Shown here: one piece after another, positions 31,370 to 55,676 of the stretch
Numbering within the stretch: the stretch's first letter is position 1
How the letters are laid out: every line of letters begins with the position of its first letter
Assembly: GCA_965197765.1 (NCBI GenBank)
Contig: OZ240225.1
Coordinates: 1,366,837 to 1,430,836, forward strand
DNA length: 64,000 nt
Direction: 5' to 3'
Source: Dehalococcoidia bacterium
Lineage (GTDB): Bacteria > Chloroflexota > Dehalococcoidia > Lucifugimonadales > Lucifugimonadaceae
Position numbers and translations under genes: made by a program
Notes under the pieces: generated by a model
Database searches by the model: none
Seen by the model: the letters and a program-made list of their open reading frames with translations, nothing else
Told to the model about the DNA's origin: nothing

Positions 31370-31412
31370 CCGATTCGCAATTACACGCCAAACGATAATC
31401 AACGATATTCGT

Positions 31413-32340: not shown

Positions 32341-32341
32341 C

Positions 32342-33517
32342 CTATCGTTCCTTTCTTACACGGTCGATGGGCACGACGCAGGTCACGCACGCCCCCCCGT
32401 CCGGTCCCCGGGGCTCGACGTCAAGGCGTCCGCCCAATCGCTCGGCGTGCGCCCGCATGTTGGTGAAGCCGTGGCCTTTCTCCTCGTAGCCGTCGGGGAG
32501 TCCCGCCCCGTCGTCCGACACCGACAGTCTGAGTTCATGCGGTCCGAAGTCGAGTCCGACCTGCACTTTGCTCGCCCCGGCATGTCGGAAAGCGTTGGCG
32601 AGAGCGTTGTGCGCTATGGCGAACAGCAGGCTTCTGGCCTCGATCGGAAGCGGCGGCTCGGTCCCGTTCTGGGTCAGCATCGCCGACACCGCCGTCACGG
32701 ACGTGAACGTCGCGACGTGCGAGTTCAGGGTCCGGCCCAGCTCCCGACCTTCGAATATGCGGCCCATGTCCACCAGGTGCCTCAAATCCCAGATGGCGGT
32801 CTTCGACAGCAGCGACGTCGTTTCCAGTCTGGCTGCGAGCTCCTTGTTGGAGTCTCCAGCCACCTCCTTCGCCGCGTCGATGCCCAAACCGATCATGTAC
32901 GCTGACTGAGACGCCGTGTCATGAATGGCCTGCGACAGCTCGATCCGTTCCCGTTGCAGCTCTCCTTCTCTTGCCATCGCCGCTCTTGCCCGTCGCCGCT
33001 GGAACCGGGTTATGAAGTTAATCGCGAGGACTACCCCGAACATCGCGACCACCCTAGAAAAAAGCATCTTCTCATTTATTCCGTCGAAAGCCATGCCCGA
33101 GCCGACGGTCAAGCTCACGCCGCCGTAAATGCCGGCGGTCATCGTAGTCCAGGTGAGATTCAACAGGACGGAGGTGAAAACGGCGGCAAAAGCGGCGAGG
33201 GCGGGATAGTAAGGAAGGAACAGGAAAGTGTCGAACCCCCCATCGACGACGACGCTGGCCGTGATCAGAGTTATGTCCATGGCACTCAGGACAAGCAGGT
33301 GGCGCCATGTCACCCTGCGCCGAGTGATCAGACGGTAGTGCACGTAGCCGTTGAGTGCAACAAGCGGCACGTGCATGAGCATGAACGGAATGTATTTAGC
33401 ATACGTGAACGCTGGCCGATAGACGAGTTCGATCACGGCGCCGACCCAGAACAGCCAGCGTATCCACACCGTGATTTTTGCAGCGTACGATGCCTCGTCC
33501 GGATCGAGCCAGAACAT
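32342..33517 (-). CDS. Membrane sensor histidine kinase (HisKA_3 / NarX-type)
   Basis: About 6 TM segments, then the H-box AIHDTASQS and an HATPase region (NALANAFRHAGA...DDGAGLP...GHGFTNM). Stop abuts the RR start. Start placed at Met54 of the track ORF; uncertain. Confidence 0.8.
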   Translation of the reverse strand: MFWLDPDEASYAAKITVWIRWLFWVGAVIELVYRPAFTYAKYIPFMLMHVPLVALNGYVHYRLITRRRVTWRHLLVLSAMDITLITASVVVDGGFDTFLFLPYYPALAAFAAVFTSVLLNLTWTTMTAGIYGGVSLTVGSGMAFDGINEKMLFSRVVAMFGVVLAINFITRFQRRRARAAMAREGELQRERIELSQAIHDTASQSAYMIGLGIDAAKEVAGDSNKELAARLETTSLLSKTAIWDLRHLVDMGRIFEGRELGRTLNSHVATFTSVTAVSAMLTQNGTEPPLPIEARSLLFAIAHNALANAFRHAGASKVQVGLDFGPHELRLSVSDDGAGLPDGYEEKGHGFTNMRAHAERLGGRLDVEPRGPDGGACVTCVVPIDRVRKER

Positions 33518-33804
33518 CTGCAGGACCCGCGTCTGTATTGCACCGAACGCTACCTTCACCGAATACCGACCCCTACTCCAACACGCGATCCGACATGGGT
33601 GCGAGGCGACGCCACAGACTGTACAGATGAGAAACGTCCGTCGGTGGAACTGGCTCGCCCTCAGCCTTGGCGTCACCCGTTATATCAGCCCTGCTGACAC
33701 CGGAACTGGATCGCCAGGCATGAAGGTCGACGGCCTGCAGCCCGACGAGCTGCGAGTCTGCTTGTACCGTTCGGTAGGAATCCTCGCCTGATGCGACATG
33801 TGGA

Positions 33805-35013
33805 CGGTCTGCCTGTCGATAGGGTCGTACGTGCGGCGTGTGCATGACCCCAATCTACCCCCCGCCTGTTGTGCACGCAAGAGCACTTTATACCTGTCAT
33901 ATGGACATAAACACCCTCTACGAGAGCAAACAATTCGCGGCACCAAGAGTGGGTCTGGCACTTGTCGATTCGATGAATAGTCGTTGTTTTTTCATGTGCA
34001 AACCGAACTGCCGATGAGCGGGTTATCAGACTGACACGTCAAGGGCGGGAGCCGATTGACACGGCCAATCCATTCCGAAGAGTCGTCAATGCGGCATTCT
34101 GCTCGACGTGGAAATATGCTGAAGCGATAATCAAGGCTCGATGCGTAATATGTGAAGCCCGTAAGGTCATGGCTTTGAAGCCGACATGAACCCGTCGCGA
34201 CCTTCAATGTGCGCTGGACTTGAACTTCAATTTGACTTGACCTAATCCTTTACCAGCAATTGCGAAGACGACATGTATGTCCCTGAGGTCTTCACTATGA
34301 TCCCGACCTATGCGCCAAGCATCCGCGGGCGTTTGTGATTCGTCGGACGCGCCGCCGAGCCAGCAATTGAACGGCTGATTCACAGTATTTTCTTCGAGAG
34401 CACGTTTTACCTCTCGAAATTGCAAAACACTCTCTTTAAGATCAAACGTTTTGAATCAGCAAATATGTTTCTTGGTACTTTCCGAGACGACCTCTGGTCT
34501 TTACGATTTAAGCCTTATGACGCATCAGGTGGAGATCTAGGCCCATGCCGCGCAACTATAGGATGGACGGAAACCGTGTCTGTCGGCCCGAAATCGGCGA
34601 GCAGATGGCGGAGGTTTCGACCCCGCATCGGAACATCGCGAATACAAACGCGACAGATGCTGTGTCGGCGCCGTGGCCGCTGGGGCCGCTGTCCATCGGT
34701 GTTGCGGCAGCTGTCGCGACGACCGCGCCCACCGGCGGCACGCCCATCGGCGATTACGGAAAACCGACGCATCTGTGGTATCGGTCCCGGAACGTCTCCA
34801 AACACCTGTCAACCGTTCGTAAGCCGTTTCGCAGTTCGGCGCTCGAACCAGCAGATGCAGGTGCCCAACGCGCCTGCCTGTTCGCACAACCAACTGCTGT
34901 GGAGCTCAAAACGCCAATTGCGCGCGAGAACAGACATTCCGGCAAGGGTAAAAAACCGAGAAAAAGCATCACGACGAGAAATCGGATCGTCGGACAAGTG
35001 AAACCGATTAATT
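33805..35013 (+). repeat. Leader block copy 1 (about 1.2 kb, duplicated at 57159..58357)
   Basis: Colinear by eye with copy 2, roughly 85-90 % identity with small indels and several perfectly conserved stretches, e.g. a 68-nt run GGCATTCTGCTCGACGTGGAAATATGCTGAAGCGATAATCAAGGCTCGATGCGTAATATGTGAAGCCC. Ends 50 nt before the first giant ORF. Confidence 0.85.
34204..34425 (-). CDS. Small ORF inside leader copy 1 (73 aa), unknown function
   Basis: Open in copy 1 (…VKRALEENTVNQPFNCWLGGASDESQTPADAWRIGRD...HVVFAIAGKGLGQVKLKFKSSAH). The colinear frame in copy 2 keeps register but has three in-frame stops. Confidence 0.3.
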   Translation of the reverse strand: MQFREVKRALEENTVNQPFNCWLGGASDESQTPADAWRIGRDHSEDLRDIHVVFAIAGKGLGQVKLKFKSSAH

Positions 35014-35063: not shown

Positions 35064-38000
35064 ATGAAGATTTTCCGACGTTTCGACGCGCTCCTGCTTA
35101 TCGCCTTTGCGATCGGGCTGACGGCCGTCGCCGTCCTGCCGCTCATCCCCTGGGTCGTCGACGCCCAGACGACGAACCAGTCCGCCACCGGCCGGCCCAG
35201 GGTCCTGGCTGCCGCGCAAGGCGCAAGCATCCTGTTCGCCGACACTGAGGGCATCAACGACGGGAACGGACTCTCCTTTGAAGAAATCGCTACTAATGCT
35301 CCCATCAGGTTCAACTGGTCCTACCAGTGGATCCGGGTCGACGGCGACTCCGAGACGAACGTGGGCGCCGACTCGGCCAGTTACCATCCTGTCCAAGCCG
35401 ATGTCGGCAAGCGGATCAAGGTGAAAGTCTCGTTCACGGACGGGGCCAACTACTCGGAGTCTCGGACCAGCCTGCCGTTCGGCCCGATCGCCGAAGTGGT
35501 CGGCACGACGCAGCTCCCGTTCGTGCTGGTCACCAACAGAGAAGAGGGTACATTAACCACGGCGAACATCACCCAGCAGTACGCCATCGGCTTCAAGCTG
35601 GGAGATCACGGCCGGGGCTATGAAATCTCCAGCGTCATCATCGGCCTCGCCGCGGCCCCGTCCAGTCTGACCGTCTCCCTGTGGAGCGGCGGCCATTCAG
35701 AGGCCTTTCAATCCAATAACGCGAGCAAGCTATTCGACTTTGCCAACCCGGCCTCCTTCGCCGTCGGCAACAACGAGTTCACGGCCCCGGCGGGCGCGTT
35801 CGCGTACCAGAACTTCAACTACTTCGTCGTGCTGTCGGGTTTCGGCTCCTCCCTGTCCATCCTGGAGACGTCGGACAACGAGGAGGGGGACGAAGGCGTG
35901 TCGGGGGCCATCATCTACGACGATGCGGCCGTCCGGGATTTGACCGCCACTGGACGATGGGCAATTTCCGAAGATCGCACCAGCGTGTTGGAACTGACCG
36001 TCATGGGCTCGAAGCGAGGTCACGGCATCATAGCTTCGAACTATGCCCAACCCTTCATCGACGATAAGGGCACTGTTGACACTATGGACGACACGGGTGG
36101 TGACCAAGAGATCGTATCGGTGGGCGACACGGGCGGTATCGGGATCGAACTCGGAGCAGCGGACCGCTACCTCATCCGCGGTGTTTCCTTCAACTCGGAC
36201 GACACAACACCAAGTAACGGCGGCTTTACCAACCCGTTCTCCCTGCGCTCGGGTACCTTGACGGGCGCCAAGCAGTTCAGCCTGGTCAATACACGTAACG
36301 TACCCGGCCTGCCGGTTTGGACGGCTCCGCGAGGTGCAACCGTGGCAGGAGGGTGCACTACGAGCATGGGTGTGGAGACATGCAAAAAATACGTCTTCGA
36401 CCAGATGGGCAATATTGGCTCTGATACTGGCGACGTAAAGAAACGGAGACGAATTAGCATCTTAACCCGCTATTCAAGCGCCGAATCCGACGGCGTTGAC
36501 AGCCCGGCGGCGGCGGGCGTGAGCTTCACCGGCGCAACAGATGATATAGAAGCAGACGACCCGTACATGGCCCTTCTCGGCGAGCCGCTCCACGCGATGG
36601 TGCAGAACCTGGGCCAGGCCGACGACGGTTACCGTTCCGTCGGCGGCGCCAACAGAAAGGTGTTGTCGCAGGGCTTCACGACCGGCTCCAACGTGTCCTT
36701 GCTGCAGGGCATCGGCGTCAACATCGAAGGCTCCGGCAGCAGCTTCCCTGACGGGCCGACCTCCGTGTCGGTTGCCGTGCACGCCGATTCGGGCGGGAAG
36801 CCGGGCGCAAAGCTCTTCGACCTCGTCAGTCCCGACGAGTTCGCGGCCGGCCACAGCTTCTTCGAGGCGCCACCGGGAACGACTCTGGCGCCCAACACCT
36901 CTTATGTGGTGGCGTGGAGGCATATCGGCGGCACTGTGCACAGGATGCGGAAGACCTCGAGCAACGGCGAGGACACGGGCGCGCTGTCAGGCTTCAGCTT
37001 GGCGAACACGTTCTATCAGGGCGTCGACCTTGACAACATGGCAGCGGACCCGGGCAGCGATGTGTTGGAGATCGCGGTATACAGAAGCAGGAAAGTGCCC
37101 AACGCCACCGGCCGGCCGAGAGTCTTGGCTTCCCCGGAAGGCACCGGAATTCTGTTCGCCGACCCTGCGCGCATCAAGGATACCGACGGGCTGCCCTTCG
37201 CGTTCGACGGCCCGACCATGAGTGTGGTCCGGCTTCGCCTGTACTATTACCAGTGGATCCGGGTTGACGCCGAGACCGCTGCGGAGACCCTCGTCGGTGT
37301 CGACTCGCCGAGCTACCAGCGTGTCGACGCCGATGTCGGGCACCTGATGAAGGTGCGGGTGTCGTTCTTCGACCAGGCCGGCGCCTTTGAGAGTTTGACC
37401 AGCCTGCCGTTCGGCCCGGTTCACGGAAGACCGGCGCTGCTGCGGGAGTCGACGCTGGTCGCCAACACGGGCCAGTCTGCGTCGGCCGAGGAGGAGATCA
37501 CCGGGCAGTACGCCATGGGGTTCCGGCTGGGCGGTCACGGCCAAGGCTACGAGATCTCCAGCGTCTCAATCGATCTGGCCGCGGCGCCGTCGAGCCTGAC
37601 CGTGTCGCTGTGGGCCGGCGGCCGTGAAGGGATGCCAGGCAGCGATCGCACGAGTTACAAGCTGTTCGACTTCGCGAACCCGTCGTCCTTTCGGGTGGGG
37701 CTGAACGAATTCACGGCTCCCGGAGGGGCATTCGCGTACCAGAACGTCAACTACTACATCGTGCTGTCGGGTTTCGGCGCCTCGCTAAAGATCAAAGAGA
37801 CGACGTCTAACAATGAGGATTCGGGCGGCGAGACGGGAGCCGTCATCTTCGACAGCGCGAGAACCCGGGGGTTGCATTTGACCGGAGTCTGGCGCAGTTC
37901 CACCTCGCGCAGCAGCGTGCTGCGAATGGCCGTGAAGGGCTCGCAGCGCGAGCGCGGCATCCTTATCGCGAACTACGCCCAGGCCGCCAAAGATGAATTG

Positions 38001-40181
38001 GGAGCCACGAACCAAGAAATCGTCTCGGTTGGCGATTTGACCACTGTCGAGATCGATGTCGGAGAGGCGGATCGCTACCTCGTCCGCGGTGTTTCGTTCC
38101 AAGGGGACGGCACAAATACCGTTCCGGCCTTTCCTTCACAACTGGGCGTTTCATCAACAGCCGGCCCAATGGGCGATCCGATGTACCTGTGGAACACAAG
38201 CTCGCGTACTGATTCGGAAATAACCAAGGCCGCCGCTCTGTTCAGCATGGCCACCACGCGCTCCTATGCAGGCATAAGTGTGTGGACGGCTCCGCAGGGC
38301 TCGACCGTGGCGGGAGCAAGCGCGTCATACTTCGTCGGGCAGCGTCCTACCGATCCGAGACTGTTCTCCGTCCTTGGCCGCTTTTATACGACCGAGGTCG
38401 CTGGCGTGGACATGCCAACGGCGGAGGGTGTGGCCTTCGCTACCGACGCAACCGTTGGGGACGGGGCGTGGGGAGACGGCAGACCGCTGATGGCCGTCCT
38501 CGGCGAGCCGCTCGACGCGATGGTGCAGAACTTTGACCAGACCACCAACAGCTACGCCAGTGCCACTGCCACCAACCCGGTGTTGTCGCAGGGCTTCACG
38601 ACCGGCTCCAACGACTTCCCGTACCGGCTGCAGGGCATCGGCTTCGAGATCGAAGGCTCCGGCTCCGAGATACCTGACGGTCCGACCTCTGTGTCGGTGG
38701 CGGTGTACACCGCCGACACGGACGGGAAGCCGGGCGAGAAGCTGTTCGACCTGGCCAGCCCCGCCGACTACGCGGTGGGCCACAGCTTCTTCGAGGCGCC
38801 GCCGCGAGCATACCTGGAGCCGGACACCCCCTACGTGGTGGTCTGGACCCGCCTCGGCGGCACCGCGCACAGGTTGGAGCGAACCACCAGCAACAGCGAG
38901 GACACGGGCGCGGCAACGGGCGCCAGCCTTGCGGACGTCTTATACCGGGGCGCCGACGTGAACAACCTGTCCCCGAACTCAGGCGGCAACTCGTTGGCGC
39001 TGGTGGTGTACACCGAGGTCTTGGACACGGCTATCTTCGTGGAGGGCGGTATCCCGGTGCCCCTGAACTGGTTCCACATATCGGACGGCGCCTATGCGGG
39101 GTACCAGTTCAGGGCGCTCTTCGTCACACATCACGCAATAAACGCCGAACACAATGACATAGAGATCTACAACAAACTTGTCCAGCTCGAAGCCTCTGGC
39201 CGGCCTAAACGGTATCCAGAAGCATCTGGGCGCTCCAACGATCCAGTCATTCGGCGAGTCGCCGAGCAGTTCAAGGCGGTGGTCTGCACCGCGGCGGACA
39301 AAAACGCGCGAACGAACACCGGGATGGAGGGCAGCGGCGTGCCGATCCACTGGCTGGACGGCGGCGCGCAGCATCGCGACACGCTGGTAGCCAACTCGAA
39401 CTCCCAGTTCTTCGGCCCCGAGTGGGTCCAAGACGAATGGGGCGCCATCGTCACCGGGAACTCCACCCCCTTGTTCGAGATCTCCGTGGACGAGGCTACC
39501 AGGGGCGACAAGATCGCGGAGGGGATCTGGACCGGGTGCGACTCCACAGGAATGGCGCATATGGATTACCACTTGGGTTCGGCCATGGGGATGGCCACCC
39601 TGGGCACGCCGGCAGATGAGAGCACCGGCAATGCTCCGATTGGCCCCACCGCTTCCAGTACGGGCATGGTCGCCCTCCCAGTGGGCGAATACCGGTCGAT
39701 CTACGCGATCTCGCCCGTCTTCACGGTGGTTGACGACGGCTCGGAGCGTACCATCTGGTCGTCGAGGATGACGGTGGGAACAAACACGTTTGCCAGTGCA
39801 ACAATCACGGAGGTAACCACCGGATACGTCGACTTAATTAGTGTCGGCAGCATCGAGGGGTCAAAGCAATTCACCTACGAGGGCGGGACCTACTCTGTGG
39901 TTCGTCTCCGCATCCTTAAGGAAACGACGTCAGGCACCGTCTCAATGAACTTCGTAAACCTGGGAATGTCTTCGCTGCCGCCGGAGGGAACCGACTCGAA
40001 GCTAGCCCTCGAGCTCACCTGCTGGGGAAGCTGCCGCGGCGAGCAGCAAGGCTCACAGCGAACGCGTTTTCTCCTGTCGGAAGCAACACGCGTCGGTAAC
40101 GGTTACTCCTGGGACAACCCCGGCCTGCCCTGGGCCGACGGCGACGAAGTTGTGATCAGGCTCATCGAGCTGCGGGATTGA
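35064..40181 (+). CDS. Giant secreted mosaic protein A (1705 aa)
   Basis: Signal peptide MKIFRRFDALLLIAFAIGLTAVAVLPLIPWVVDAQT. A 640-aa unit is duplicated in tandem (A41 and A681 both start ATGRPRVL...); each unit holds one YQW-type Ig-like repeat and two QxFTTG-type modules. C-terminal part: an FRALFVT... domain and an MTV...WADGDEVVIRLI module. Confidence 0.85.
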   Translation: MKIFRRFDALLLIAFAIGLTAVAVLPLIPWVVDAQTTNQSATGRPRVLAAAQGASILFADTEGINDGNGLSFEEIATNAPIRFNWSYQWIRVDGDSETNVGADSASYHPVQADVGKRIKVKVSFTDGANYSESRTSLPFGPIAEVVGTTQLPFVLVTNREEGTLTTANITQQYAIGFKLGDHGRGYEISSVIIGLAAAPSSLTVSLWSGGHSEAFQSNNASKLFDFANPASFAVGNNEFTAPAGAFAYQNFNYFVVLSGFGSSLSILETSDNEEGDEGVSGAIIYDDAAVRDLTATGRWAISEDRTSVLELTVMGSKRGHGIIASNYAQPFIDDKGTVDTMDDTGGDQEIVSVGDTGGIGIELGAADRYLIRGVSFNSDDTTPSNGGFTNPFSLRSGTLTGAKQFSLVNTRNVPGLPVWTAPRGATVAGGCTTSMGVETCKKYVFDQMGNIGSDTGDVKKRRRISILTRYSSAESDGVDSPAAAGVSFTGATDDIEADDPYMALLGEPLHAMVQNLGQADDGYRSVGGANRKVLSQGFTTGSNVSLLQGIGVNIEGSGSSFPDGPTSVSVAVHADSGGKPGAKLFDLVSPDEFAAGHSFFEAPPGTTLAPNTSYVVAWRHIGGTVHRMRKTSSNGEDTGALSGFSLANTFYQGVDLDNMAADPGSDVLEIAVYRSRKVPNATGRPRVLASPEGTGILFADPARIKDTDGLPFAFDGPTMSVVRLRLYYYQWIRVDAETAAETLVGVDSPSYQRVDADVGHLMKVRVSFFDQAGAFESLTSLPFGPVHGRPALLRESTLVANTGQSASAEEEITGQYAMGFRLGGHGQGYEISSVSIDLAAAPSSLTVSLWAGGREGMPGSDRTSYKLFDFANPSSFRVGLNEFTAPGGAFAYQNVNYYIVLSGFGASLKIKETTSNNEDSGGETGAVIFDSARTRGLHLTGVWRSSTSRSSVLRMAVKGSQRERGILIANYAQAAKDELGATNQEIVSVGDLTTVEIDVGEADRYLVRGVSFQGDGTNTVPAFPSQLGVSSTAGPMGDPMYLWNTSSRTDSEITKAAALFSMATTRSYAGISVWTAPQGSTVAGASASYFVGQRPTDPRLFSVLGRFYTTEVAGVDMPTAEGVAFATDATVGDGAWGDGRPLMAVLGEPLDAMVQNFDQTTNSYASATATNPVLSQGFTTGSNDFPYRLQGIGFEIEGSGSEIPDGPTSVSVAVYTADTDGKPGEKLFDLASPADYAVGHSFFEAPPRAYLEPDTPYVVVWTRLGGTAHRLERTTSNSEDTGAATGASLADVLYRGADVNNLSPNSGGNSLALVVYTEVLDTAIFVEGGIPVPLNWFHISDGAYAGYQFRALFVTHHAINAEHNDIEIYNKLVQLEASGRPKRYPEASGRSNDPVIRRVAEQFKAVVCTAADKNARTNTGMEGSGVPIHWLDGGAQHRDTLVANSNSQFFGPEWVQDEWGAIVTGNSTPLFEISVDEATRGDKIAEGIWTGCDSTGMAHMDYHLGSAMGMATLGTPADESTGNAPIGPTASSTGMVALPVGEYRSIYAISPVFTVVDDGSERTIWSSRMTVGTNTFASATITEVTTGYVDLISVGSIEGSKQFTYEGGTYSVVRLRILKETTSGTVSMNFVNLGMSSLPPEGTDSKLALELTCWGSCRGEQQGSQRTRFLLSEATRVGNGYSWDNPGLPWADGDEVVIRLIELRD

Positions 40182-40228: not shown

Positions 40229-42865
40229 ATGACATCAATGAGACTCATCGATCTGACCGACTCCGCCTCTAGGAGAGAGGCTCTCCTTGGCCCGTCGACC
40301 GGGGCCCTGATCCCATGGGGCATCAGGGTGGCCCTGATGGCGGCGATGGTGCTGGCGGGCATGGCCCTCTGGTCGACGCAGGCGTACGCGGACGGGGAAG
40401 AGGCTGGAGAGCCGGTCTGGTCGGCCGACATGACGGTGGTGGAGTACACCAGCGTCTCCATCGGCGCGGCCAGCGCCGACCTCTTCTCCAACGTGGGCGG
40501 AAGCGGCAACCTGCAGATCAAGTCGCTCTGGTCGCACATACCGGACCGCGATCTGCGCCTGGCATTTACAGACGAGGTTCCCAACGCTGCGGACTACACC
40601 CTGCAGGTCGGCGACCTCTCCCTGGAGTTTCCCGAGGATAGCTCCGGCTCCAGCAGCTTCAAATGGCACGACGTGGACGTCGATTGGGAAGACGGTCAAC
40701 TAATTCGTGTACGCATCGTTCTCACGGCCGAAAGCGGCGATCAACAAACCAACACTCCCAACACCCCGGCCACGGGCGTCCCCACCATCAGCGGAACGGC
40801 GCAGGTGGGCGAGACACTGGCGGCGGACACCTCGGGCATCGCGGACGAGGACGGGCTGGACAGTGTTTCCTACCACTACCAGTGGATGCGCACCGATGCC
40901 GACATCGCGGACGCGACGGACTCCACCTACACGCTCACCGACGACGACCAGGGCAATACCATCAAACTGAAGGTGTCGTTCATCGACGACAACGGCAACA
41001 GCGAGACTCTTACCAGCGTCGCGACGACGGAGGTCAGCAAGAGGCCGCAGTTTCTGGTCAGCAACCTGGGCGTCGGGGTCGAAGGCGCCGGCGGGATTCA
41101 GCGAACGCTTAACGCCGCCCGATCAGGGTTTGCCCAGGCATTCACGACGGGCGCGAAGACCGACGGGTACGCAGTCGGCGCCGTCGACATCCAGATGTCG
41201 AACTTCTTCGATGCGTCGAACACGGCGGACCAGCTCCGGGTGACGATCAACGGGGTCGCGAGCGAAGGCGGGCCGGGCGACGCGCGCTGCACCCTGACCA
41301 ATCCGTCGAGCTTCACCGCCCTAAGCGTGATCACCTTCGAGGCGCCGACGGGTGCAGGCTCCTGCCCGCAACTGGCGGCGGAAACAACCCACTTCGTCGT
41401 GATCGAGTGGATCAGTCCGACCGGGACGGACTCTTTTGCAGTGATTCCGCAGACCTATCCCACCAAGGAGTCGGCTGCGATAGCAGAGGATCCGGGCGGC
41501 GCGGAAGGCTGGTCGATCGCCGACCAAGCCTACTATCTCACCGTCGGTTCCGACGCTCGGACCTGGACCGCCTACGACGAGACGGCCAGCTTCAAGATTC
41601 AGGTGAAAGAAGCCGTCGTCACGGCGGCCAAGGCCAACAGCCCGGCCGCGGGCCTGCCCACGATCTCGGGCACGCCCAAGGTGGGCGAGACGCTTACCGC
41701 GGACACGTCTGCCGTTACGGACGAGGACGGGCTGGACGATGTCTCCTACAGCCACCAGTGGCTGGCCGACGGCACGGACATCGACGGAGCCGCCGCCTCG
41801 ACCTACGAGCTTTCCAACTCCGAGACGGGCAAGACCATCCAGGTCAGGGTGACCTTCACCGACGATGACGACAACGCCGAGACCCGGACGAGCGTGGCGA
41901 CGGAGGCGGTAGCTGCCAAGGCCAACACTGCGCCCACCGGCCTTCCCGACATCACGGGCACGCCCCAGGTGGGCGAGACGCTGACGGCCGGCACCTCCAC
42001 CATCAACGACGAAGACGGGCTGGAAAACGTTTCCTACAGCTACCAGTGGATCCGGAGCGACAACGGCGCGGACACCGACATAGCCGGAGCGACTGACTAC
42101 ACCTACACCGTTGTCTTGGCCGACCAGGGCAAGACCATCAAGGTGAAGGTGTCCTTCACCGACGACGCTGACAGCGAGGAGGTCCTGACCAGCGAGGCTA
42201 CCGTCGCCGTCGCGGCGGCCAAGGCCAAGGCCAACAGCCCGGCCGCGGGCCTGCCCACGATCTCGGGCACGCCCCAGGTGGGCGCGACGCTGACGGCGGA
42301 CACGTCTGCCGTTACGGACGAGGACGGGCTGGACGACGTCTCGTACGGCTACCAGTGGATCGCCGGCGGCGCGGACATCGATGGGGCGACCGCCTCGACC
42401 TACGAACTTACCAGCAGCGAGCAGGGCCAGACCGTCCAGGTCCGTGTGACCTTCACCGACGACGGGGACAACGCCGAGACCCTGACCAGCATTGCTACTG
42501 CCGAAGTGGCGTCGTCGCCGGAGCCACTCACCGTCCGGCTGAAGGTCTCTGCCCCGGCAACCCACGACGGATCGACGGAGTTCACCTTTGAGATCGAGTT
42601 TAGCGAGGAGTTCGGCCTGAGCTATGTGACCCTCAGGGACTTGGCATTCGTCGAAACCGGGGGTGAAGTCCGCAAGGCGCAGCGAATGGACAAGCCCAGC
42701 AACATCAAGTGGCGAATAATGGTGAGGCCAGACTCCAGCGAGGATGTGACCATCGTTCTGCCCGTCACCACGGACTGCAACGCCGTTGGGGCCATCTGCA
42801 CCGCGGACGGCAGGAAACTGTCCGACTCGCTGAACTTCACCGTCTCCGGGCCGGGCCAGGAATAA
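40229..42865 (+). CDS. Giant secreted mosaic protein B (878 aa)
   Basis: Hydrophobic signal region ...ALMAAMVLAGMALWSTQAYADG. MTV...WEDGQLIRVRIV module, 4 YQW repeats, one QAFTTG module, and a C-terminal Cys module ending DCNAVGAICTADGRKLSDSLNFTVSGPGQE. Confidence 0.85.
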   Translation: MTSMRLIDLTDSASRREALLGPSTGALIPWGIRVALMAAMVLAGMALWSTQAYADGEEAGEPVWSADMTVVEYTSVSIGAASADLFSNVGGSGNLQIKSLWSHIPDRDLRLAFTDEVPNAADYTLQVGDLSLEFPEDSSGSSSFKWHDVDVDWEDGQLIRVRIVLTAESGDQQTNTPNTPATGVPTISGTAQVGETLAADTSGIADEDGLDSVSYHYQWMRTDADIADATDSTYTLTDDDQGNTIKLKVSFIDDNGNSETLTSVATTEVSKRPQFLVSNLGVGVEGAGGIQRTLNAARSGFAQAFTTGAKTDGYAVGAVDIQMSNFFDASNTADQLRVTINGVASEGGPGDARCTLTNPSSFTALSVITFEAPTGAGSCPQLAAETTHFVVIEWISPTGTDSFAVIPQTYPTKESAAIAEDPGGAEGWSIADQAYYLTVGSDARTWTAYDETASFKIQVKEAVVTAAKANSPAAGLPTISGTPKVGETLTADTSAVTDEDGLDDVSYSHQWLADGTDIDGAAASTYELSNSETGKTIQVRVTFTDDDDNAETRTSVATEAVAAKANTAPTGLPDITGTPQVGETLTAGTSTINDEDGLENVSYSYQWIRSDNGADTDIAGATDYTYTVVLADQGKTIKVKVSFTDDADSEEVLTSEATVAVAAAKAKANSPAAGLPTISGTPQVGATLTADTSAVTDEDGLDDVSYGYQWIAGGADIDGATASTYELTSSEQGQTVQVRVTFTDDGDNAETLTSIATAEVASSPEPLTVRLKVSAPATHDGSTEFTFEIEFSEEFGLSYVTLRDLAFVETGGEVRKAQRMDKPSNIKWRIMVRPDSSEDVTIVLPVTTDCNAVGAICTADGRKLSDSLNFTVSGPGQE

Positions 42866-42868
42866 GCC

Positions 42869-45800
42869 ATGATCGCGTTCCGGCGTCTTGCGCCCCTTCC
42901 ACTGCTGCTCGTCGGGCTGACGGTCCTTGCCGCCGCGGCGTTCGTCCCCTGGATTGTCCACGCCCAGAGCCGGGACTCCGGCAGCGAGTTCACTCTGGCG
43001 GCCGCCAACGGCTATCCGACCGGCATCTGGTCGGACGGGACCACGATGTGGGTCGCGGACTTCGAGGACTCCAAGCTGTACGCCTACCGGATGTCGGACC
43101 GGAGCCGGGATTCGGGCAAGGATTTCACTCTGGACGCCGTCAACGGCTCTCCGGTGGGAATCTGGTCGGACGGGACCACCATGTGGGCGTCGGACTTCTC
43201 CGACGCCAAGCTGTACGCCTACCGGATGTCGGACCGGAGCCGGGACTCCGGCAAGGACTTCAACACGCTTTCTGCAGCCGGCAACAAATTTCCCGAGGGC
43301 ATCTGGTCGGACGGGATCACGATGTGGGTGGCGGACACCGGCAACGACACGGTGTTCGCCTACGACCTGTCGACCAGGGCCAGGGACTTCGAGAAGGACG
43401 TCACGCTGGCCCCCGGCCACGACTCCCCGATGGGCGTCTGGTCGAACGGATCCACGATGTGGGTTTCGGACTGGAGGGACGCCAAGCTGTACGCCTACCG
43501 GATGTCGGACCGGAGCTGGGACTCCGGGAAGGACTTCGCGCTGGACGCCGACGATGAATCTTACGAGGGCATCTGGTCGGCCGGGTCCACGATGTGGGTG
43601 GCGTCCCGCGACGACGGCACGCTGTACGCCTACGACTGGAACAACCCCGCCGCGGGAACGCCGACGATCGTCGGCGCGGTCCGGGTGGACGAGAAGCTGG
43701 CGGCGGGCACTCACTCCATCGCCGACGCGGACGGGCTGGACGACGCCAACTTCCGCTATCAATGGGTTTCGAGCGACGGGAACGCGTACACGGACATCGC
43801 GGGCGCGACCGGTTCGACCTACACCGTCGCCTCGAGCGACACGGGCAGGACCGTCAAGGTCAGGGTTTCCTTCACCGACCACGCCGGCAACGAAGAGTCG
43901 CTTACAAGCGAGCCGACGGGCCGGGTCGGGGCTCAGGGCGTCTGCGACCGGACGCCTTCGGTGATGGCGGCCATCGTCGCCGGGATGTCCGGCGTCGACG
44001 ACTGCTCCGAGGTTTCCGAGACGAGGCTCGGGACATGGGCCGGCTCGGAGGGCTACGGCCCCGGCGTCACGCCCGGGCTGCGCCTGCAGGGGAGGGGGCT
44101 GTCGGTCCTGCAGGCCGGGGATTTCCGCGACCTGCGCGCGCTGCGCGCCTTGGACCTTAGCAGAAACTTCCTCGAGACTGTGCCGGACGGACTTTTCGAA
44201 GACCTCGAGATGGTGGAGGAGCTCTATCTGTCGGGAAATCTCCTGAACGAACTGCCGGACGGGACGTTCGACGGCCAAACCGCGAATCTGAGCGTTCTGG
44301 ACCTGTCCGGCAACTCGATGGACGAGTTGCCGGAGGGTGTGTTCGACGGCCTGGGAGACCTGCAGAGCCTTTCCCTCTCGGGGAACGGCGTGAAGAACCT
44401 GCCGGAGAACGTGTTCGCCGACCTCGGGAGTCTCGCGGTTCTGGACCTTTCGGGAAACGAGCTTGAGGACCTGCCCGTCGGCGTCTTCGAAGGTCTGTCG
44501 GGGCTGACCGATCTCGACGCGGGCGACAACCCGGGCGCGCCTTTCACGTTCACCGCGGAGCTGGAGCGTCGGGGGGACGATGCGGTCGTGGTCCGATCAG
44601 CCGAAGGCGCGGCGCCGCTCGGCTTGAAGATCGAACTGTCGGCCCTCAACGGGGAGTTGTCCTCCGAGACCGTCATCATCGCCTCGGGCAGTTCATATTC
44701 GGACGTTGTCGACGTCAGTGCGCACGGGGATCGTCCCGTCACAGTGAGAATCGAATCCGCCGCATTTTTGTTGCCAGCAGGAAGTTCCGCGTCGGGCATC
44801 CGCGCCGACCGCGGCAGCGCCATGCTCATGTGGATCGGCAGACCGCAGGTTCAGAGGGAATGGATCCAGGACGGAAACTTCGCTCTTCATCCGGAGAACG
44901 CGGATCCGAAGAGCATATGGTCCGACGGGGAGACGCTCTGGGTCGGCGACGACGGCGCCGGGAAGGTGTTCGCCTACAAGCTGTGGGACAATCCCGATAC
45001 CGCGGTCAACGAGTACGGGACCCGAGACCCGGGCTGGGACGTTCCGAGCCTGGGCCAGGAGGACTACCACGTCACGGGCCACGGCGCTCGCCTGTACGTC
45101 GCCGAAGAGTCCCTCGAAGGCGCCAGTCGGGACGTCTTCGGCTATGACCTGACGGGGCTGACGCGCGCGGAAGACAGAGACTTCGTCTACGGAGGCTTGA
45201 ACGTCGCCGGTGGAGTGTGGATCGTGCGGGGCTTGGCGACGGACGGCCGTCACATGTGGATCACCGACACCACATCGCACGCGCACGCCTTCCGCCTGGC
45301 CGACGACCCGGAGACGCCGGAGGACGAATACGGGAGGCCGGACACCTCCCGGAGGCTGACGATCCCGGGCTCGGGACAGCTGACGGGCCTCTTCACCGAC
45401 GGGCGGACGATGTGGGGCGTCAGGTTCGCCTCGCACGACACTTCGGTGCGGAGCGTGAAACTGTCCGACGGAACCGGAGCGGGTTACGACTTTCCGCTCC
45501 ACGAGGAAAATGAACACGCCTTCGGCGTCTGGTCGAACGGTGAGACCTTCTACGTCGTCGACGCCGTCGATGCCATGATCTACACCTATGGGGACGTCGA
45601 CGGCGTCGTTCGGCCCTCTGTCGAAGACGCGGAGACCGCAGCCGCGCTGGTCGGCAACACGACGCGGTCCGGCGACGACGCCCACGACCTGGGCTCGGCC
45701 GGCGTCAAGAGGGCTCAGGCGTTCACCACCGGGCCCAACAACCCCGGGTACGCGCTGGCATCCGTCGGGATCGGTTTCGGCGACGTTTCGGACGCGTCGT

Positions 45801-48800
45801 CCGCGCCGTCCGACCTCGAGGCGACGCTCAACGCGGACGGCGGCGGGGTCCCGGGCGACGCGCTCTGCACGCTGATCGCCCCGGCGAACCTGTCCGAACG
45901 GAGCGTGAACAACTTCGCCGCTCCGGCCTCGGGGACGATCTGCCCGACCCTCGTGAAAGAGACGACCTACTTCGTGGTGGTCGAAAGGATCGGCGTCACA
46001 AATTCCGGCACCATCGCCGTCGGAGGAACGGCGAGCGATGCCGAAGACTCGGGGGCCGCGGCGGGGTGGTCCATCGCGGACGGAAGCACGACATATTCTC
46101 CTCAGGCCGCCGACCAGGGATGGGCCTCGGACGCGTTTTCATACAAGATCGAGGTGCGCGGCTCCTTCATCAACAACCCGGCCGTCGGCAAGGCGACGGT
46201 CACGGGAACGGCGCAGGTGGGGCGGACGCTCGCCGCGACGGTCTCCGACGTGTCGGACGACGACGGGCTGACACAGGCGGCCTACTCGTACCGGTGGTTG
46301 CGGGTCGACGGCGCGACCGAGACGAGCATCGGGAGCGGCTCGTCCTCCTACGAACTCGTCGCCGAGGATCTGGGCAAGCGGGTCAAAGTGCGGGCAGCGT
46401 TCGTCGACGACCGCGGCAACTATGAAACGCTGACCAGCGCGGCTACCGCGACGGTCGAGGTTTTCAAGGCGGCGGACCGGCCCGGAACCGTTTCGCTCTT
46501 CCCGGCGCGGCCGAGGGTCGGGACGGTTGTCAGCGCCGCGCTGAGCGATCCCGACGGCCTCAAGGGCGGCGGCTCGGGTCCTGCGGCGTCCCTGGGCGCG
46601 GTTTCGTGGATCTGGGCCAGGTCTCCTGACGGGACCTCCTGGACCAGCGTCAAGGCGTACGGCGAAGGAGGCAGCTACGTTCCAACCGAAGAAGACGAAG
46701 GGATGCTGCTCAAGGTCGAGGCGTCGTACACCGACGGGCACGGCCCCGGCAAGTCCGCGGAAGCTGTTTCGATCGCCGGCGCGGGCGCCCGCGAATCGGG
46801 TCCGGAACTGAAGGTGACGGAAATCGTCCAGGACCTTTCCCACCCGTGGGGCATCGATTTCACCCCCGACGGGACGATGCTGTTCACCGAACGCGCCGGC
46901 GTGCTGAGCGCGCGTCTGACCGACGGCACCGTCAAGCGCGTGACCGCGGATCTCGGAGATCTGCTTGTCGACGGGTTCGCCGGTCTGCAGGCGCTGGCCG
47001 TGGACCCGGACTTTGCGACCAACCGGCGGTTCTACACGCTCCAGGGGCACACCGGACGCGAGATGCAGGTGATCGTTTGGACGATCGACGCGGACTACGA
47101 GGAGGCCACACGCGTCGTCGATCCTCTGGTGAAGGGCATTCCGATGGGGCCCGGCCCCTGGCACTCGGGAGGCCGGCTGGTGTTCGGCCCGGAGGGATAT
47201 CTCTGGATCGCGACCGGCGACGGGCGGGTGGTAACGGGCGCGCAGGACCTGACGTCCCTGGGCGGCAAGGTCCTCCGCGTAGACCCGCGGACGGGCGCCG
47301 GGGCGCCCGGCAATCCGTTCGGCGCCTCCTCGCCGGTGTACGCCTACGGCTTCCGCAACCCCCAGGGCCTGGCTCTGCGCCCGGGCACGGATCAGATGTG
47401 GCTGGTGGAGCACGGCCCGAGACACGACGATGAGATCAATCTGCTCGCGGCAGGGGGCAACTACGGCTGGGACCCGGACGGCGGTTCGTCGGTCTTCTAC
47501 GACTATGCCGACGAGGCCGGCGTCCCCATGACGGATCTGGCGAAGTTCCCTTCCGCCCTCGAGGCCAGGTGGTCTTCTGGATTCCCCACTCTGGCGACTA
47601 GCGGAGCAGTCTTCCTCGAGGGGTCGCAATGGGCGGAGTGGGAAGGACGCCTCGCGGTGGCCACGCTGAAGACGAAGTCGCTTCGGGTCTTCGAGTTTAC
47701 CGAACAGGGCGATTTCGTGAGTCAGATCGTCGTTCCGGAGCTCTACGGCAGCCGCAGCCACGCCCGGCTGCGGACCCCGGTGCTCGGCCCCGACGGGGCT
47801 CTGTACATCGCCACCTCCAACAAACCCGGCGTCGACAGGATTCTCAGGGTGACCGCCAACCTTCCCGCGACGGGAGAGCCGTTCATCAGCGGCACGCCGC
47901 GCGTTGGCGGGACGCTGACGGCGGACACGACGGGCGTCGCCGACGGGGACGGTCTGGAAAATGTCGACTTCATCTACCAGTGGATGCGCATCGACGGCGC
48001 GGTCGAGACGAACATCGGGACCGGCTCGTCATCCTACACGCTCGTCGCCGAGGATTCTGGCAAGACCATCAAGGTACGGGTGACATTCACCGACGACGCT
48101 GACCACGAGGAGACGCTGACCAGCGCGGCGACGGGGGTGGTTGCGGCCAAGCCCAACTCTCCGGCCACGGGAGCGCCCACCATCATTGGTACGGCCCAGG
48201 CGGGCGAGACGCTGACAGCGGACGTTTCCGGCGTCAACGATGAGGACGGGCTGGACGACGTTTCCTACAGCTACCAGTGGGTTTCCAACGACGGGCCCAC
48301 CGACACGGACATCCAGGACGCCACGGATTCCACCTACACCCTGGCCGATAGCGACGCAGGCAAGTCCATCAAGGTGCGGGTGTCCTTCACCGACAACGCT
48401 GACCACGAGGAGACGCTGACCAGCGCAGCAACGGAGGTGGTGCAGCAGGGTAGTAACGCCTGGTCCGCCACAATGACCGTGGAGACCAGGGATGGTTTCA
48501 CAGGGTATTCGTTCTGGGGCGATCCCCACCTGGGGTCCCTCTCGGCGACCGAGGTCGAATGGGACGGCAAGACCCACTATGTCAGGTTCCTCTTTCTCAA
48601 GGACGGCGAGCTGAGGCTCGGCCTGAACGAGGAGATGTTTTCCACCGGCTTCGTGCTGTCGGTTGGGGACGAGGAGTTCGGCTCGGCGAAGGCCATGCTG
48701 GATCATCTCGGTGCGTCCTACAGATTCCGGTGGGATGACCCGGGATTGGGCTGGTCGGACGGGGAGGAGGTGTCGGTGAACCTCGTGCGGTCCGACCAGA

Positions 48801-50017
48801 ATACTCCGGCCCTGGGCGCGCCGACCATCAACGGTACGGCGCAGGTGGACGAGACGCTGACGGCGGACACCACCGGTGTTGAGGACGCGGACGGGTTGAC
48901 CAACGTGTCGTACAGCTACCAGTGGATCGCCGGAGGATCGGACATCGACGGGGCCACCGGCTCGACCTACGAACTTACCGGCAGTGAGCAGGGTCAGACC
49001 ATCCAGGTCCGGGTGACTTTCACCGACGACGCTGACCACGAGGAGACGCTGATCAGCGCGGCCACCGTTGAGGTGGCGGCCAAGCCCAACACTGCGCCCA
49101 CGGGCCTGCCCACCATCGGCGGGACCCCTCAGGTGGAACAGACGCTGACCGCGGACACGTCGGGAATTACCGACGCCGACGGGCTCACCAACGTTTCCTA
49201 CAGCTACCAGTGGGTTTCCAACGACGGGACCACCGACACGGACATCCAGGACGCCACGGATTCCACCCACACCCTGACCGACGACGACGCAGGCAAGACC
49301 ATCGAGGTGCGGGTGACCTTCACCGACGACGCCGAAAACGCCGAGACGCTGACCAGCGCGGCGACGGCGGCGGTTGCGGCCAAGCCCAACTCTCCGGCCA
49401 CGGGAGCGCCCACCATCGGCGGGACGCCCCAGGTGGGTGAGACGCTGACGGCGGACACCTCCGGCATATCGGACGACGACGGGTTGACCAACGTTTCGTA
49501 CAGCTACCAGTGGACCGCCGGAGGGTCGGACATCGCCGGAGCCACCGGCTCCAGCTACACCCTCAAGGGCGTGCAGAATGGGCAGACAATCCAAGTCCGG
49601 GTCTCCTTCCGTGACGACGCAGACCACGAGGAGACGCTGACCAGCGCGGCGACGGGGGCGGTTGCGGCCAAGCCCACGCCGCTGACCGTCCGCCTGGTGT
49701 TCCCCGTGGCCGGCCATCACGGCGCCTCGAATGTCTTCACATTCGACATCCGGTTCAGCGAGGAGATTCCCCTCAGCTACAAGACCCTCAAATTCCACGC
49801 CTTCGACGTGACAGGCGGGACCATCTTGAGGTCGCAACGAATGAACAAGCCCAGCAACATAAAGTGGCGAATAATGGTGAGGCCAGACTCCAGCGAGGAT
49901 GTGACCATCGTTCTGCCCGCCACAACGGACTGTGAGGCTCAGGGGGCCATCTGCACGGAGGACGGCAGAATGCTGTCCAACAGTCTGGTGTTCACCGTCA
50001 GTGGTTCGAGCGGATAG
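42869..50017 (+). CDS. Giant secreted mosaic protein C (2382 aa) with propeller blades, LRR block and PQQ-type sugar dehydrogenase-like domain
   Basis: ATG 4 nt after the stop of B. Signal MIAFRRLAPLPLLLVGLTVLAAAAFVPWIVHAQS and about six 45-aa blades (GIWSDGTTMWVAD..KLYAYRM). LRR block (LDLSGNxLxxLPxGVFxGL) and a 5-blade module also found in protein E. QAFTTG module and 7 YQW repeats. GSDH-like propeller (HPWGIDFTPDG...GGRLVFGPEGYLWIATGD...YAYGFRNPQGLA). MTV-type module and C-terminal Cys module. Confidence 0.85.
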   Translation: MIAFRRLAPLPLLLVGLTVLAAAAFVPWIVHAQSRDSGSEFTLAAANGYPTGIWSDGTTMWVADFEDSKLYAYRMSDRSRDSGKDFTLDAVNGSPVGIWSDGTTMWASDFSDAKLYAYRMSDRSRDSGKDFNTLSAAGNKFPEGIWSDGITMWVADTGNDTVFAYDLSTRARDFEKDVTLAPGHDSPMGVWSNGSTMWVSDWRDAKLYAYRMSDRSWDSGKDFALDADDESYEGIWSAGSTMWVASRDDGTLYAYDWNNPAAGTPTIVGAVRVDEKLAAGTHSIADADGLDDANFRYQWVSSDGNAYTDIAGATGSTYTVASSDTGRTVKVRVSFTDHAGNEESLTSEPTGRVGAQGVCDRTPSVMAAIVAGMSGVDDCSEVSETRLGTWAGSEGYGPGVTPGLRLQGRGLSVLQAGDFRDLRALRALDLSRNFLETVPDGLFEDLEMVEELYLSGNLLNELPDGTFDGQTANLSVLDLSGNSMDELPEGVFDGLGDLQSLSLSGNGVKNLPENVFADLGSLAVLDLSGNELEDLPVGVFEGLSGLTDLDAGDNPGAPFTFTAELERRGDDAVVVRSAEGAAPLGLKIELSALNGELSSETVIIASGSSYSDVVDVSAHGDRPVTVRIESAAFLLPAGSSASGIRADRGSAMLMWIGRPQVQREWIQDGNFALHPENADPKSIWSDGETLWVGDDGAGKVFAYKLWDNPDTAVNEYGTRDPGWDVPSLGQEDYHVTGHGARLYVAEESLEGASRDVFGYDLTGLTRAEDRDFVYGGLNVAGGVWIVRGLATDGRHMWITDTTSHAHAFRLADDPETPEDEYGRPDTSRRLTIPGSGQLTGLFTDGRTMWGVRFASHDTSVRSVKLSDGTGAGYDFPLHEENEHAFGVWSNGETFYVVDAVDAMIYTYGDVDGVVRPSVEDAETAAALVGNTTRSGDDAHDLGSAGVKRAQAFTTGPNNPGYALASVGIGFGDVSDASSAPSDLEATLNADGGGVPGDALCTLIAPANLSERSVNNFAAPASGTICPTLVKETTYFVVVERIGVTNSGTIAVGGTASDAEDSGAAAGWSIADGSTTYSPQAADQGWASDAFSYKIEVRGSFINNPAVGKATVTGTAQVGRTLAATVSDVSDDDGLTQAAYSYRWLRVDGATETSIGSGSSSYELVAEDLGKRVKVRAAFVDDRGNYETLTSAATATVEVFKAADRPGTVSLFPARPRVGTVVSAALSDPDGLKGGGSGPAASLGAVSWIWARSPDGTSWTSVKAYGEGGSYVPTEEDEGMLLKVEASYTDGHGPGKSAEAVSIAGAGARESGPELKVTEIVQDLSHPWGIDFTPDGTMLFTERAGVLSARLTDGTVKRVTADLGDLLVDGFAGLQALAVDPDFATNRRFYTLQGHTGREMQVIVWTIDADYEEATRVVDPLVKGIPMGPGPWHSGGRLVFGPEGYLWIATGDGRVVTGAQDLTSLGGKVLRVDPRTGAGAPGNPFGASSPVYAYGFRNPQGLALRPGTDQMWLVEHGPRHDDEINLLAAGGNYGWDPDGGSSVFYDYADEAGVPMTDLAKFPSALEARWSSGFPTLATSGAVFLEGSQWAEWEGRLAVATLKTKSLRVFEFTEQGDFVSQIVVPELYGSRSHARLRTPVLGPDGALYIATSNKPGVDRILRVTANLPATGEPFISGTPRVGGTLTADTTGVADGDGLENVDFIYQWMRIDGAVETNIGTGSSSYTLVAEDSGKTIKVRVTFTDDADHEETLTSAATGVVAAKPNSPATGAPTIIGTAQAGETLTADVSGVNDEDGLDDVSYSYQWVSNDGPTDTDIQDATDSTYTLADSDAGKSIKVRVSFTDNADHEETLTSAATEVVQQGSNAWSATMTVETRDGFTGYSFWGDPHLGSLSATEVEWDGKTHYVRFLFLKDGELRLGLNEEMFSTGFVLSVGDEEFGSAKAMLDHLGASYRFRWDDPGLGWSDGEEVSVNLVRSDQNTPALGAPTINGTAQVDETLTADTTGVEDADGLTNVSYSYQWIAGGSDIDGATGSTYELTGSEQGQTIQVRVTFTDDADHEETLISAATVEVAAKPNTAPTGLPTIGGTPQVEQTLTADTSGITDADGLTNVSYSYQWVSNDGTTDTDIQDATDSTHTLTDDDAGKTIEVRVTFTDDAENAETLTSAATAAVAAKPNSPATGAPTIGGTPQVGETLTADTSGISDDDGLTNVSYSYQWTAGGSDIAGATGSSYTLKGVQNGQTIQVRVSFRDDADHEETLTSAATGAVAAKPTPLTVRLVFPVAGHHGASNVFTFDIRFSEEIPLSYKTLKFHAFDVTGGTILRSQRMNKPSNIKWRIMVRPDSSEDVTIVLPATTDCEAQGAICTEDGRMLSNSLVFTVSGSSG

Positions 50018-50164
50018 AGCGGGAAGTCAATCGCTCCGTCTTACTGGCAACAAGAAATGCCCGCATATGCGAATGGCCGGAGGCCAGCGGTCTCTCCCGG
50101 TCCGGATACGTCCCGGTGGCGTGTGCCTGACTTTCGTTTGTGTCGGCAATAGCGAAAAGCCGCA

Positions 50165-50228
50165 GAAACACTCTCCCTCAGAGCAAACAAATTGTCGCCC
50201 CCAAGAGTGTGATTTGACACTTACCAAA
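50165..50228 (+). promoter_or_regulatory. Copy B of recurring upstream motif
   Basis: GAAACACTCTCCCTCAGAGCAAACAAATTGTCGCCCCCAAGAGTGTGATTTGACACTTACCAAA, about 300 nt upstream of giant ORF D and co-oriented with it. Confidence 0.5.
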
Positions 50229-55572: not shown

Positions 55573-55676
55573 AGCGGGAAGTCAATCGCTCCGTCTTACT
55601 GGCAACAATCGATGCCCATCGTTCAAATCATAAAAACATGTCCCGTACCCCGATACGGGATCAAAATTCAGACGTT

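Follow-up and report, generated by a model that had tools for sequence, protein, structure and literature searches.

Introduction

Giant bacterial adhesins, such as the RTX/BIg-repeat proteins and the fibrillar proteins of Gram-positive bacteria, combine a signal peptide, long arrays of immunoglobulin (Ig)-like domains, functional domains and a distinct terminal domain. Here we describe proteins of comparable layout that are encoded in a 64,000-nucleotide stretch of DNA from a Dehalococcoidia bacterium (contig OZ240225.1, positions 1,366,837 to 1,430,836), which is referred to throughout as the window and in which three giant genes, B, C and D, end in copies of a single module containing a C-x6-C cysteine pair. 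These proteins share with the giant adhesins the signal peptide, the Ig-like stalk, the functional domains and the distinct terminal domain, but they lack an LPXTG signal, a type I secretion system (T1SS) signal or a barrel, and their terminal domain belongs to a new sequence family. We conclude with high confidence that the module represents a separate, uncurated family of extracellular bacterial Ig-like beta-sandwich domains of ~110 residues, for which Big_12 is the nearest described family. Most likely it serves as one of the component domains from which giant secreted or surface proteins are assembled, and the role that we tentatively favour, at slightly less than even chances, is that of a ligand-binding end domain.

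Other described systems resemble the module in some respects and differ from it in others. Big_12 (PF19078) domains comprise about 100 aa, belong to the same beta-sandwich class and form repeat arrays in large extracellular proteins, but the window copies are unmatched by this family and module homologs remain under its 27-bit gathering score (5 of 31 at E<=1). The C-terminal sorting domain of the type IX secretion system (T9SS; PF18962/TIGR04183) is likewise a small Ig-like beta-sandwich found at the C-terminus of large secreted proteins with varied N-termini. However, the module has no sequence match to this domain, is also used internally and in up to 25 copies, and can be located upstream of a real T9SS-type domain. 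Module hosts in the window's lineage are Chloroflexota and Actinomycetota, neither of which is known to use T9SS. The YQW-type repeats that adjoin the module (IG_AIR9 PF23197/SCAB-Ig; ZirU_fam NF040485) are similar to it in size, but have no profile relationship to it (probability 0.2%) and no Cys. In contrast to the sortase LPXTG signal, the module has LP-x-TTDC followed by ~30 polar residues, with apolar runs of at most 6 residues in the last 40 aa. The signals recognized by exosortases and archaeosortases (PEP-CTERM) differ in that module proteins have no C-terminal hydrophobic helix and no NCBIfam match.

Module copies in the giant-gene array

Genes A to D form a tandem array of giant genes, all on the + strand, and inspection by eye revealed signal-peptide-like N-termini on all four. 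In-frame translation and tblastn agree that genes B, C and D each terminate in a module copy, as had been proposed in the original prediction. The start given there for the copy in B (42521) is in frame, whereas those for C (49671) and D (55226) were 2 nt out of frame; the in-frame positions are as follows.

35064-40181, + strand: gene A, 1705 aa, signal-peptide-like N-terminus
40229-42865, + strand: gene B, 878 aa, N-terminus signal-peptide-like
41630-42865, + strand: shared ~400-aa 3' cassette of gene B, three YQW-type Ig repeats and the module
42521-42865, + strand: module copy 1, last 114 codons and stop of gene B; the sequence modelled with AlphaFold2 and the first row of alignment A1
42681-42764 (B) and 49836-49919 (C), + strand: gene-conversion tract inside the module, 96.4% nt identity as against 60.6% upstream
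42776-42799, + strand: C-x6-C loop of copy B, Cys850 to Cys857
42869-50017, + strand: gene C, 2382 aa; signal peptide, leucine-rich repeats (LRR), PQQ-type glucose/sorbosone dehydrogenase domain, YQW Ig repeats, module
~48800-50017, + strand: cassette equivalent in C (blastp)
49673-50017, + strand: module copy 2, final 114 codons and stop of gene C
49931-49954, + strand: C-x6-C loop of copy C, C2355/C2362
50530-55572, + strand: gene D, 1680 aa; signal peptide, PPDK_N-like ATP-binding domain, YQW Ig repeats, module
~54367-55572, + strand: cassette equivalent in D (blastp)
55228-55572, + strand: module copy 3, final 114 codons and stop of gene D
55475-55512, + strand: second mosaic patch, Cys-loop DNA of D, 92% identical to B (42765-42802) and 76% to C
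55486-55509, + strand: C-x6-C loop of copy D, C1653/C1660
56926-57000, + strand: orphan 3' remnant of a fourth module, 24 codons and stop, its first residues inside the Cys loop
58342-64000, + strand: ORF E, fifth giant ORF, running past the window end with at least 1886 codons visible

In tblastn searches of the whole window, the modules of C and D were 96.5% identical (E 1e-75), and the B module showed 68-69% identity to those of C and D (E 1e-44 to 1e-48). Each full copy contains the C-x6-C pair, as predicted, and the proteins terminate in ...FTVSGPGQE or ...FTVSGSSG. The truncated fourth copy proposed at 56926-57000 was also recovered: it translates to GAVCTSDGRKLSDGVGITVSGPGG followed by a stop codon, is detected by tblastn with B (E 1e-7) and is ~59-62% identical at the nucleotide level to B, C and D. 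Upstream of this remnant we found no gene body and no resemblance to the giant proteins A-D, stalk repeats included. Apart from the three full copies and the remnant, tblastn of the whole window gave no further copy; paralog A is without the module, and none is present in the visible 1886 aa of ORF E.

The payload of gene C consists of LRR repeats and a full PQQ-type glucose/sorbosone dehydrogenase domain (E 5e-68), and that of gene D is a PPDK_N/PEP-synthase-like ATP-binding domain (E 2e-24), which is odd in an exported protein. ORF E, which is missing from the list of open reading frames because the window end truncates it, has a signal-peptide-like stretch ~120 codons in and is 33-35% identical over ~730-840 aa to module-bearing Acidimicrobiia proteins (L052, L054, L072). 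The stop codon of B (TAA, 42863-42865) is separated by a gap of 3 nt from the ATG of C (42869), which lies in the same reading frame, and loss of this stop would fuse B to C and turn the terminal module of B into an internal copy. Stop-codon loss of this kind is one possible route to the internal copies seen in other proteins.

Fold and family identity

An alignment of 31 module sequences (A1) was used as input for AlphaFold2. The resulting model (pLDDT 90.6, pTM 0.80) is mainly beta, with seven strands and one short helix, and its last two strands are connected by a long loop, residues 81-103, in which both Cys residues lie. Foldseek neighbours in the PDB were weak, with top matches at TM ~0.5 and E 1.5e-3 to 0.1. 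We take the matched regions of these entries to be Ig-like domains, the top three presumably residing in a TssM deubiquitinase, an L,D-transpeptidase and an alpha-2-macroglobulin, with a filamin domain ranking 20th.

At the sequence level, no Pfam or NCBIfam model matches the window copies, which bears out the earlier view that the module cannot be assigned to a named family, and a profile search of PDB sequences with the module returned nothing at E<=10. The best Pfam family for module homologs is Big_12, although the scores remain below its threshold: the homologs P0069 and P0087 reach 24.9 and 26.1 bits respectively (cut-off 27), and residues 29-128 of P0069 align to positions 6-98 of the 102 in the Big_12 profile. 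Five of the 31 A1 members match Big_12 at E<=1 (best E 1.3e-4), and the window copies do not match it even at E<=10. Pfam matches to Ribosomal_S28e and DMAP1 were rejected as sub-threshold or repeat-driven noise. An exact look-up of protein B gave no database record, cluster look-ups returned 'hypothetical protein' annotations only, and literature searches on Poriferisodalis and on Big_12/PF19078 yielded nothing of relevance.

The module might have been a degenerate last repeat of the stalk. This was ruled out by hhalign, since comparison of A1 with an alignment of the YQW stalk repeats (A4) gave a probability of 0.2% (E 0.28) over 6 columns. The YQW repeats are also devoid of Cys, and within the C-terminal ~400 aa of B, C and D no cysteine occurs outside the module pair. 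The analysis confirms that the module is a discrete, strongly conserved unit.

Conservation of the Cys loop and a proposed binding role

When the module profile was searched against 1.84 billion representative proteins, the number of matching clusters was 5330 at E<=1e-3 and fell to 2258 at E<=1e-30, and single proteins carried as many as 25 module copies; no relative was found on viral contigs. The Cys pair proved to be a hallmark of the family. Both residues are invariant in A1, and both are kept in 680 of 687 copies, comprising 150 of 150 terminal and 530 of 537 internal copies. The loop motif in which they lie, TTDC-x-A-x-GA-x-CT-x-DGR-x-LS, is among the best conserved parts of the module and contains many invariant or near-invariant A1 columns.

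In the model that we tentatively favour, the giant proteins are composed of a signal peptide, a variable payload (LRR, PQQ-dehydrogenase propeller or ATP-grasp-like), a stalk of YQW-type Ig repeats and then the module, which in the window's lineage is the habitual last domain after this stalk. The two invariant Cys residues would be joined by a disulfide, stapling the long loop, and the stapled, conserved loop would then constitute a ligand-binding surface, making the module a binding end domain.

Position of the module and the question of a C-terminal signal

The original prediction held the position of the module to be strictly C-terminal. This is the case in the window and is usual in its relatives, but across the wider family internal positions and multiple copies are frequent. 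In the set of the 150 best representatives, which favours multi-copy proteins, the module is at the protein end in 61, and more than 30 residues follow the last copy in 82. Tails of ~98 aa after the last module comprise FlgD_ig/Por_Secre_tail domains of the T9SS type (e.g. P0191 and P0133), and other tails consist of LRR regions. Tails of ~560-800 aa, of which 24 of 28 end in W or F, are probable outer-membrane barrels, possibly of the autotransporter kind: weak matches were obtained to OMP_b-brl in one of three scanned (E 5.5e-4) and to TIGR01414 in two of ten (E 0.006). Searches of these long tails against the PDB gave no credible match, the one entry recovered (E 0.026), a DNA mismatch-repair protein, being unrelated. 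Calx-beta, SWM_repeat, SRCR and LRR domains are also combined with the module in other family members. These architectures show modular use of the domain across several secretion types of giant secreted protein. The original prediction had distinguished the module from a generic Ig/Big-type domain that occurs at arbitrary positions and lacks a conserved Cys pair; an Ig/Big-like class and arbitrary positions are indeed what we observe, but the Cys pair is conserved.

To examine the module in the window's own lineage, we turned to a genome collection, in which 440 relatives were found and the best 74 loci were analysed. These belong to Dehalococcoidia/Chloroflexota assemblies and to Acidimicrobiia (Candidatus Poriferisodalis, Aldehydirespiratoraceae), and they contain 98 ORFs with the module, of which 16 carry more than one copy. 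All ORFs of 75 loci were clustered into families, and no partner family was found beside module genes in more than 10 of the 75. In particular, no protease, transpeptidase, sortase or transporter recurs beside the module across these loci.

As the module sits at the very C-terminus in the window and its close relatives, it could be a secretion, sorting or processing signal, by analogy with the C-terminal domain of T9SS or the signals of sortases and exosortases; a dedicated machine would then read it and possibly remove it. The Ig-like fold would be compatible with this, as would the size, which is about that of the T9SS C-terminal domain, and the conserved LP-x-T-T stretch superficially recalls LPXTG. 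Nevertheless, we consider a signal of this type highly improbable. The module matches neither Por_Secre_tail nor any other sorting-signal model in Pfam or NCBIfam; it stands upstream of a real FlgD_ig/Por_Secre_tail domain in family members; internal multi-copy use is common; and no conserved protease, transpeptidase or transporter is located nearby in the 75 loci. Furthermore, LP-x-TT is not followed by a hydrophobic segment or a basic tail, the longest apolar run in the last 40 aa being 6 residues, and LP-x-TT was rejected as a sortase motif both for this reason and on the grounds that the stretch is equally conserved in internal copies. The internal copies, the tails and the neighbouring genes therefore argue that the module is not a secretion, sorting or processing signal. 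The earlier suggestion of a shared sorting, processing or attachment signal was not supported in view of the internal copies, the sorting or probable barrel tails downstream, the absence of a partner gene in the 75 loci and the lack of a module in A and in the visible part of E. The common binding head that was named there as an alternative corresponds to the role favoured here.

Two further observations concern the module proteins of the wider family. A recurrent tail of ~257-287 aa after the last module ends in ...YRVRV-x-QV-x-x-EDY-x-L-x-D-x-x-x-YRAVI and has an internal hydrophobic segment (P0121, P0123, P0128, P0139, P0159, P0161, P0166, P0181, P0201, P0241 and P0249); the one tail of this type that was scanned, that of P0128, gave no Pfam match. 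In addition, the protein database contains many module fragments of 100-200 aa on megabase contigs, which may be frameshifted or truncated gene ends like the remnant in the window.

Terminal copies as a tighter subtype

Several results weigh against a generic ligand-binding unit. The case for binding has a single source, the conservation of a surface loop. In the related loci, 88 of 112 near-full-length copies end no more than 5 residues from the stop codon, and mostly 0-1. Terminal copies are 65-91% identical to the terminal copies of other genomes and 27-68% identical to internal copies of their own protein; their mean pairwise identity is 65.9%, compared with 43.7% for internal copies. The related loci had been selected with a profile that consisted largely of terminal copies, which inflates the terminal-to-terminal values. 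The existence of a terminal subtype hints at a position-specific role, for example anchoring, which would not be required of a generic binding unit.

A cell-envelope anchor would account for these features. In single-membrane hosts (Dehalococcoidia, Acidimicrobiia), the terminal copy would hold the giant protein non-covalently on an S-layer or wall component, and the Ig stalk would carry the payload away from the cell, a layout known from Gram-positive surface proteins with a C-terminal anchor. In line with this, the order of parts runs from signal peptide through payload and Ig stalk to a module at the extreme C-terminus, the terminal copies lie mostly within a residue of the stop codon and make up the tighter subtype, and no other anchor motif was seen in module-bearing proteins. 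We nonetheless regard an anchor as unlikely, given that elsewhere the domain is internal, multi-copy and upstream of real anchor or sorting domains. Internal copies also occur within the same lineages, with three copies each in L001 and L041, and the module is absent from paralog A and from the visible 1886 aa of E, being carried by 93 of the 181 giant paralogs in the related loci, or about half. The module is also acidic (median pI 4.8), whereas many wall-binding modules are basic, and no envelope-related gene co-occurs with it in the 75 loci.

A more specific proposal is that the terminal subtype is a dedicated C-terminal attachment or host-binding head of payload-on-a-stalk proteins in single-membrane marine symbionts, spread between Chloroflexota and Actinomycetota by whole-gene transfer and kept uniform by gene conversion. 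Taken as a whole, this proposal seems to us a decidedly long shot. If its attachment component were true, it would represent a new, non-LPXTG mode of surface-protein presentation.

The shared 3' cassette and gene conversion

The original prediction stated that conservation of the module exceeds that of the protein bodies. The similarity between B, C and D is in fact common to the whole of the last ~400 aa. By blastp, this cassette is 65% identical between B468-874 and D1278-1677, 65% identical between B470-874 and C1978-2379, and 87% identical between C1978-2382 and D1280-1680; its repeats match Pfam IG_AIR9 and NCBIfam ZirU_fam. As the cassette is alike as a block, the module is only slightly better conserved than the adjoining stalk, and this excess is due in part to patches of gene conversion. 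The claim thus stands for a slight excess and no further. The patches are evident from nucleotide identities along the aligned module DNA:

Columns 1-163: B-C 60.6%, B-D 60.6%, C-D 100%
Columns 164-247 (B 42681-42764, C 49836-49919): B-C 96.4%, B-D 89.3%, C-D 90.5%
Columns 248-285 (Cys loop): B-C 73.7%, B-D 92.1%, C-D 76.3%
Columns 286-351: B-C 66.7%, B-D 66.7%, C-D 100%

Outside columns 164-285, C and D are 100% identical across the module, and the longest exact run between B and C is 58 nt. These patches of identity are gene-conversion mosaics: B, C and D inherited one ~400-aa 3' cassette, and short patches are still exchanged between the genes by gene conversion. The identity of KPSNIKWRIMVRPDSSEDVTI in all three copies consequently reflects concerted evolution and not extra purifying selection.

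This history lends itself to another explanation of the module, as an inert structural end-cap or spacer, a rigid Ig-like element of the stalk whose terminal position and similarity would be historical products of cassette duplication and gene conversion. The generic Ig-like fold with weak structural neighbours only, the long arrays of up to 25 copies, the 3' cassette common to B, C and D as a block, and the conversion patches at 96% nt identity in a background of ~61% are all consistent with this. Set against them is the finding that the best conserved part of the module is the 23-residue loop and not the strands. Retention of the Cys pair in 680 of 687 copies across several secretion contexts would be unusual for a pure spacer, and the module is unrelated to the YQW stalk repeats in the hhalign comparison, so that it is not simply the last stalk repeat. 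On balance an inert cap appears rather unlikely, and we retain the ligand-binding end domain as the preferred reading.

A diversity-generating retroelement (DGR) or antigenic-variation cassette was also considered and rejected. The remnant is ~60% nt-identical to B, C and D and does not contain the variable loop residues, and the differences are not adenine-specific; in the loop region of B, C and D they affect all bases and occur in contiguous patches. No reverse transcriptase match was obtained among the neighbouring ORFs scanned, a scan that did not cover the whole window.

Significance of the module family

The module marks thousands of giant unannotated secreted proteins in metagenomes for which there is no curated model, and a module profile would label such proteins and set their domain boundaries. 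What is new here is an uncurated Ig-like domain with a characteristic loop, for which we infer disulfide stapling; the Ig-like fold class is already known, and there is no new secretion or sorting principle on present evidence. If the stapled loop does bind a ligand, it would offer a way to study how such uncultured bacteria fix enzymes and LRR domains onto a surface or a host matrix. A sponge-associated setting is presumed by us from the genus name Candidatus Poriferisodalis alone. The window also offers a clean, small case of concerted evolution, in which short conversion patches homogenize the 3' ends of tandem giant genes, and it carries the warning that similarity within a genome cannot be read as purifying selection alone. 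Domain curators and researchers in symbiosis are the likely users of these results.

Related giant genes and neighbouring genes

The giant genes of the related loci show several close correspondences. The N-terminus of the protein in L023 is near-identical to that of gene D, and L010 has the same IKWRIMVRPDSSEDVTI variant. Giant proteins of L011 and L019 (Aldehydirespiratoraceae) are 77-83% identical over 1740-2060 aa to those of L028, L043, L048 and others (Dehalococcoidia). Provided that the assemblies are correctly labelled, this similarity between Actinomycetota and Chloroflexota points to recent transfer of giant genes across phyla.

A large serine recombinase is found beside module genes in 10 of the 75 loci, and insertion sequence (IS) transposases in 8 and 6 loci. 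Recombinase and transposase genes are present in both the upstream and the downstream flanks (L006-L010, L035, L039, L041, L053, L058 and others). A HisKA_3 histidine kinase is present in 9 of the 75 loci and a LuxR-type response regulator in 7; the loci with kinase or regulator genes are L009, L023, L024, L033, L048, L049, L051, L058, L064 and L071. In the window, the HisKA_3 kinase and LuxR-type regulator genes are located at 31684-33676 on the - strand, upstream of the giant-gene array, and this pair may regulate the array. Upstream of these two-component genes, the region 27749-31402 on the - strand codes for a protein of 1217 aa that is rich in fibronectin type III domains and is another large surface-type protein nearby.

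Putative non-coding repeats around the giant genes

A 1.2-kb direct repeat with 85.6% nt identity is located just upstream of A (33800-35013) and upstream of E (57153-58357). ORF 34420-35001 (193 aa) was ruled out as a conserved small gene because its frame is broken in the paralogous copy, and the repeat has the appearance of a leader or regulatory region without coding function. A separate element of 36-45 nt follows directly after the stop codon of C (50018-50062) and of D (55573-55617), with 93% identity between the two. It is also found in L037, L039, L043, L048 and L049 at 91-97% identity, far above that of the coding sequence. The motif GGCAACAAGAAA-N-GCCCGCATATGCGG with a short palindrome is common to several types of downstream sequence. 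The post-stop element, which had no match in Rfam, may be a terminator or an RNA element. Finally, an intergenic element of ~78 nt, with 76-78% identity, is present in the window at 50162-50241 and 57258-57335 and also in L036, L043 and L057. It lies between tandem giant genes, ~100 nt past the post-stop element, and a few hundred nt separate it from the gene that follows.

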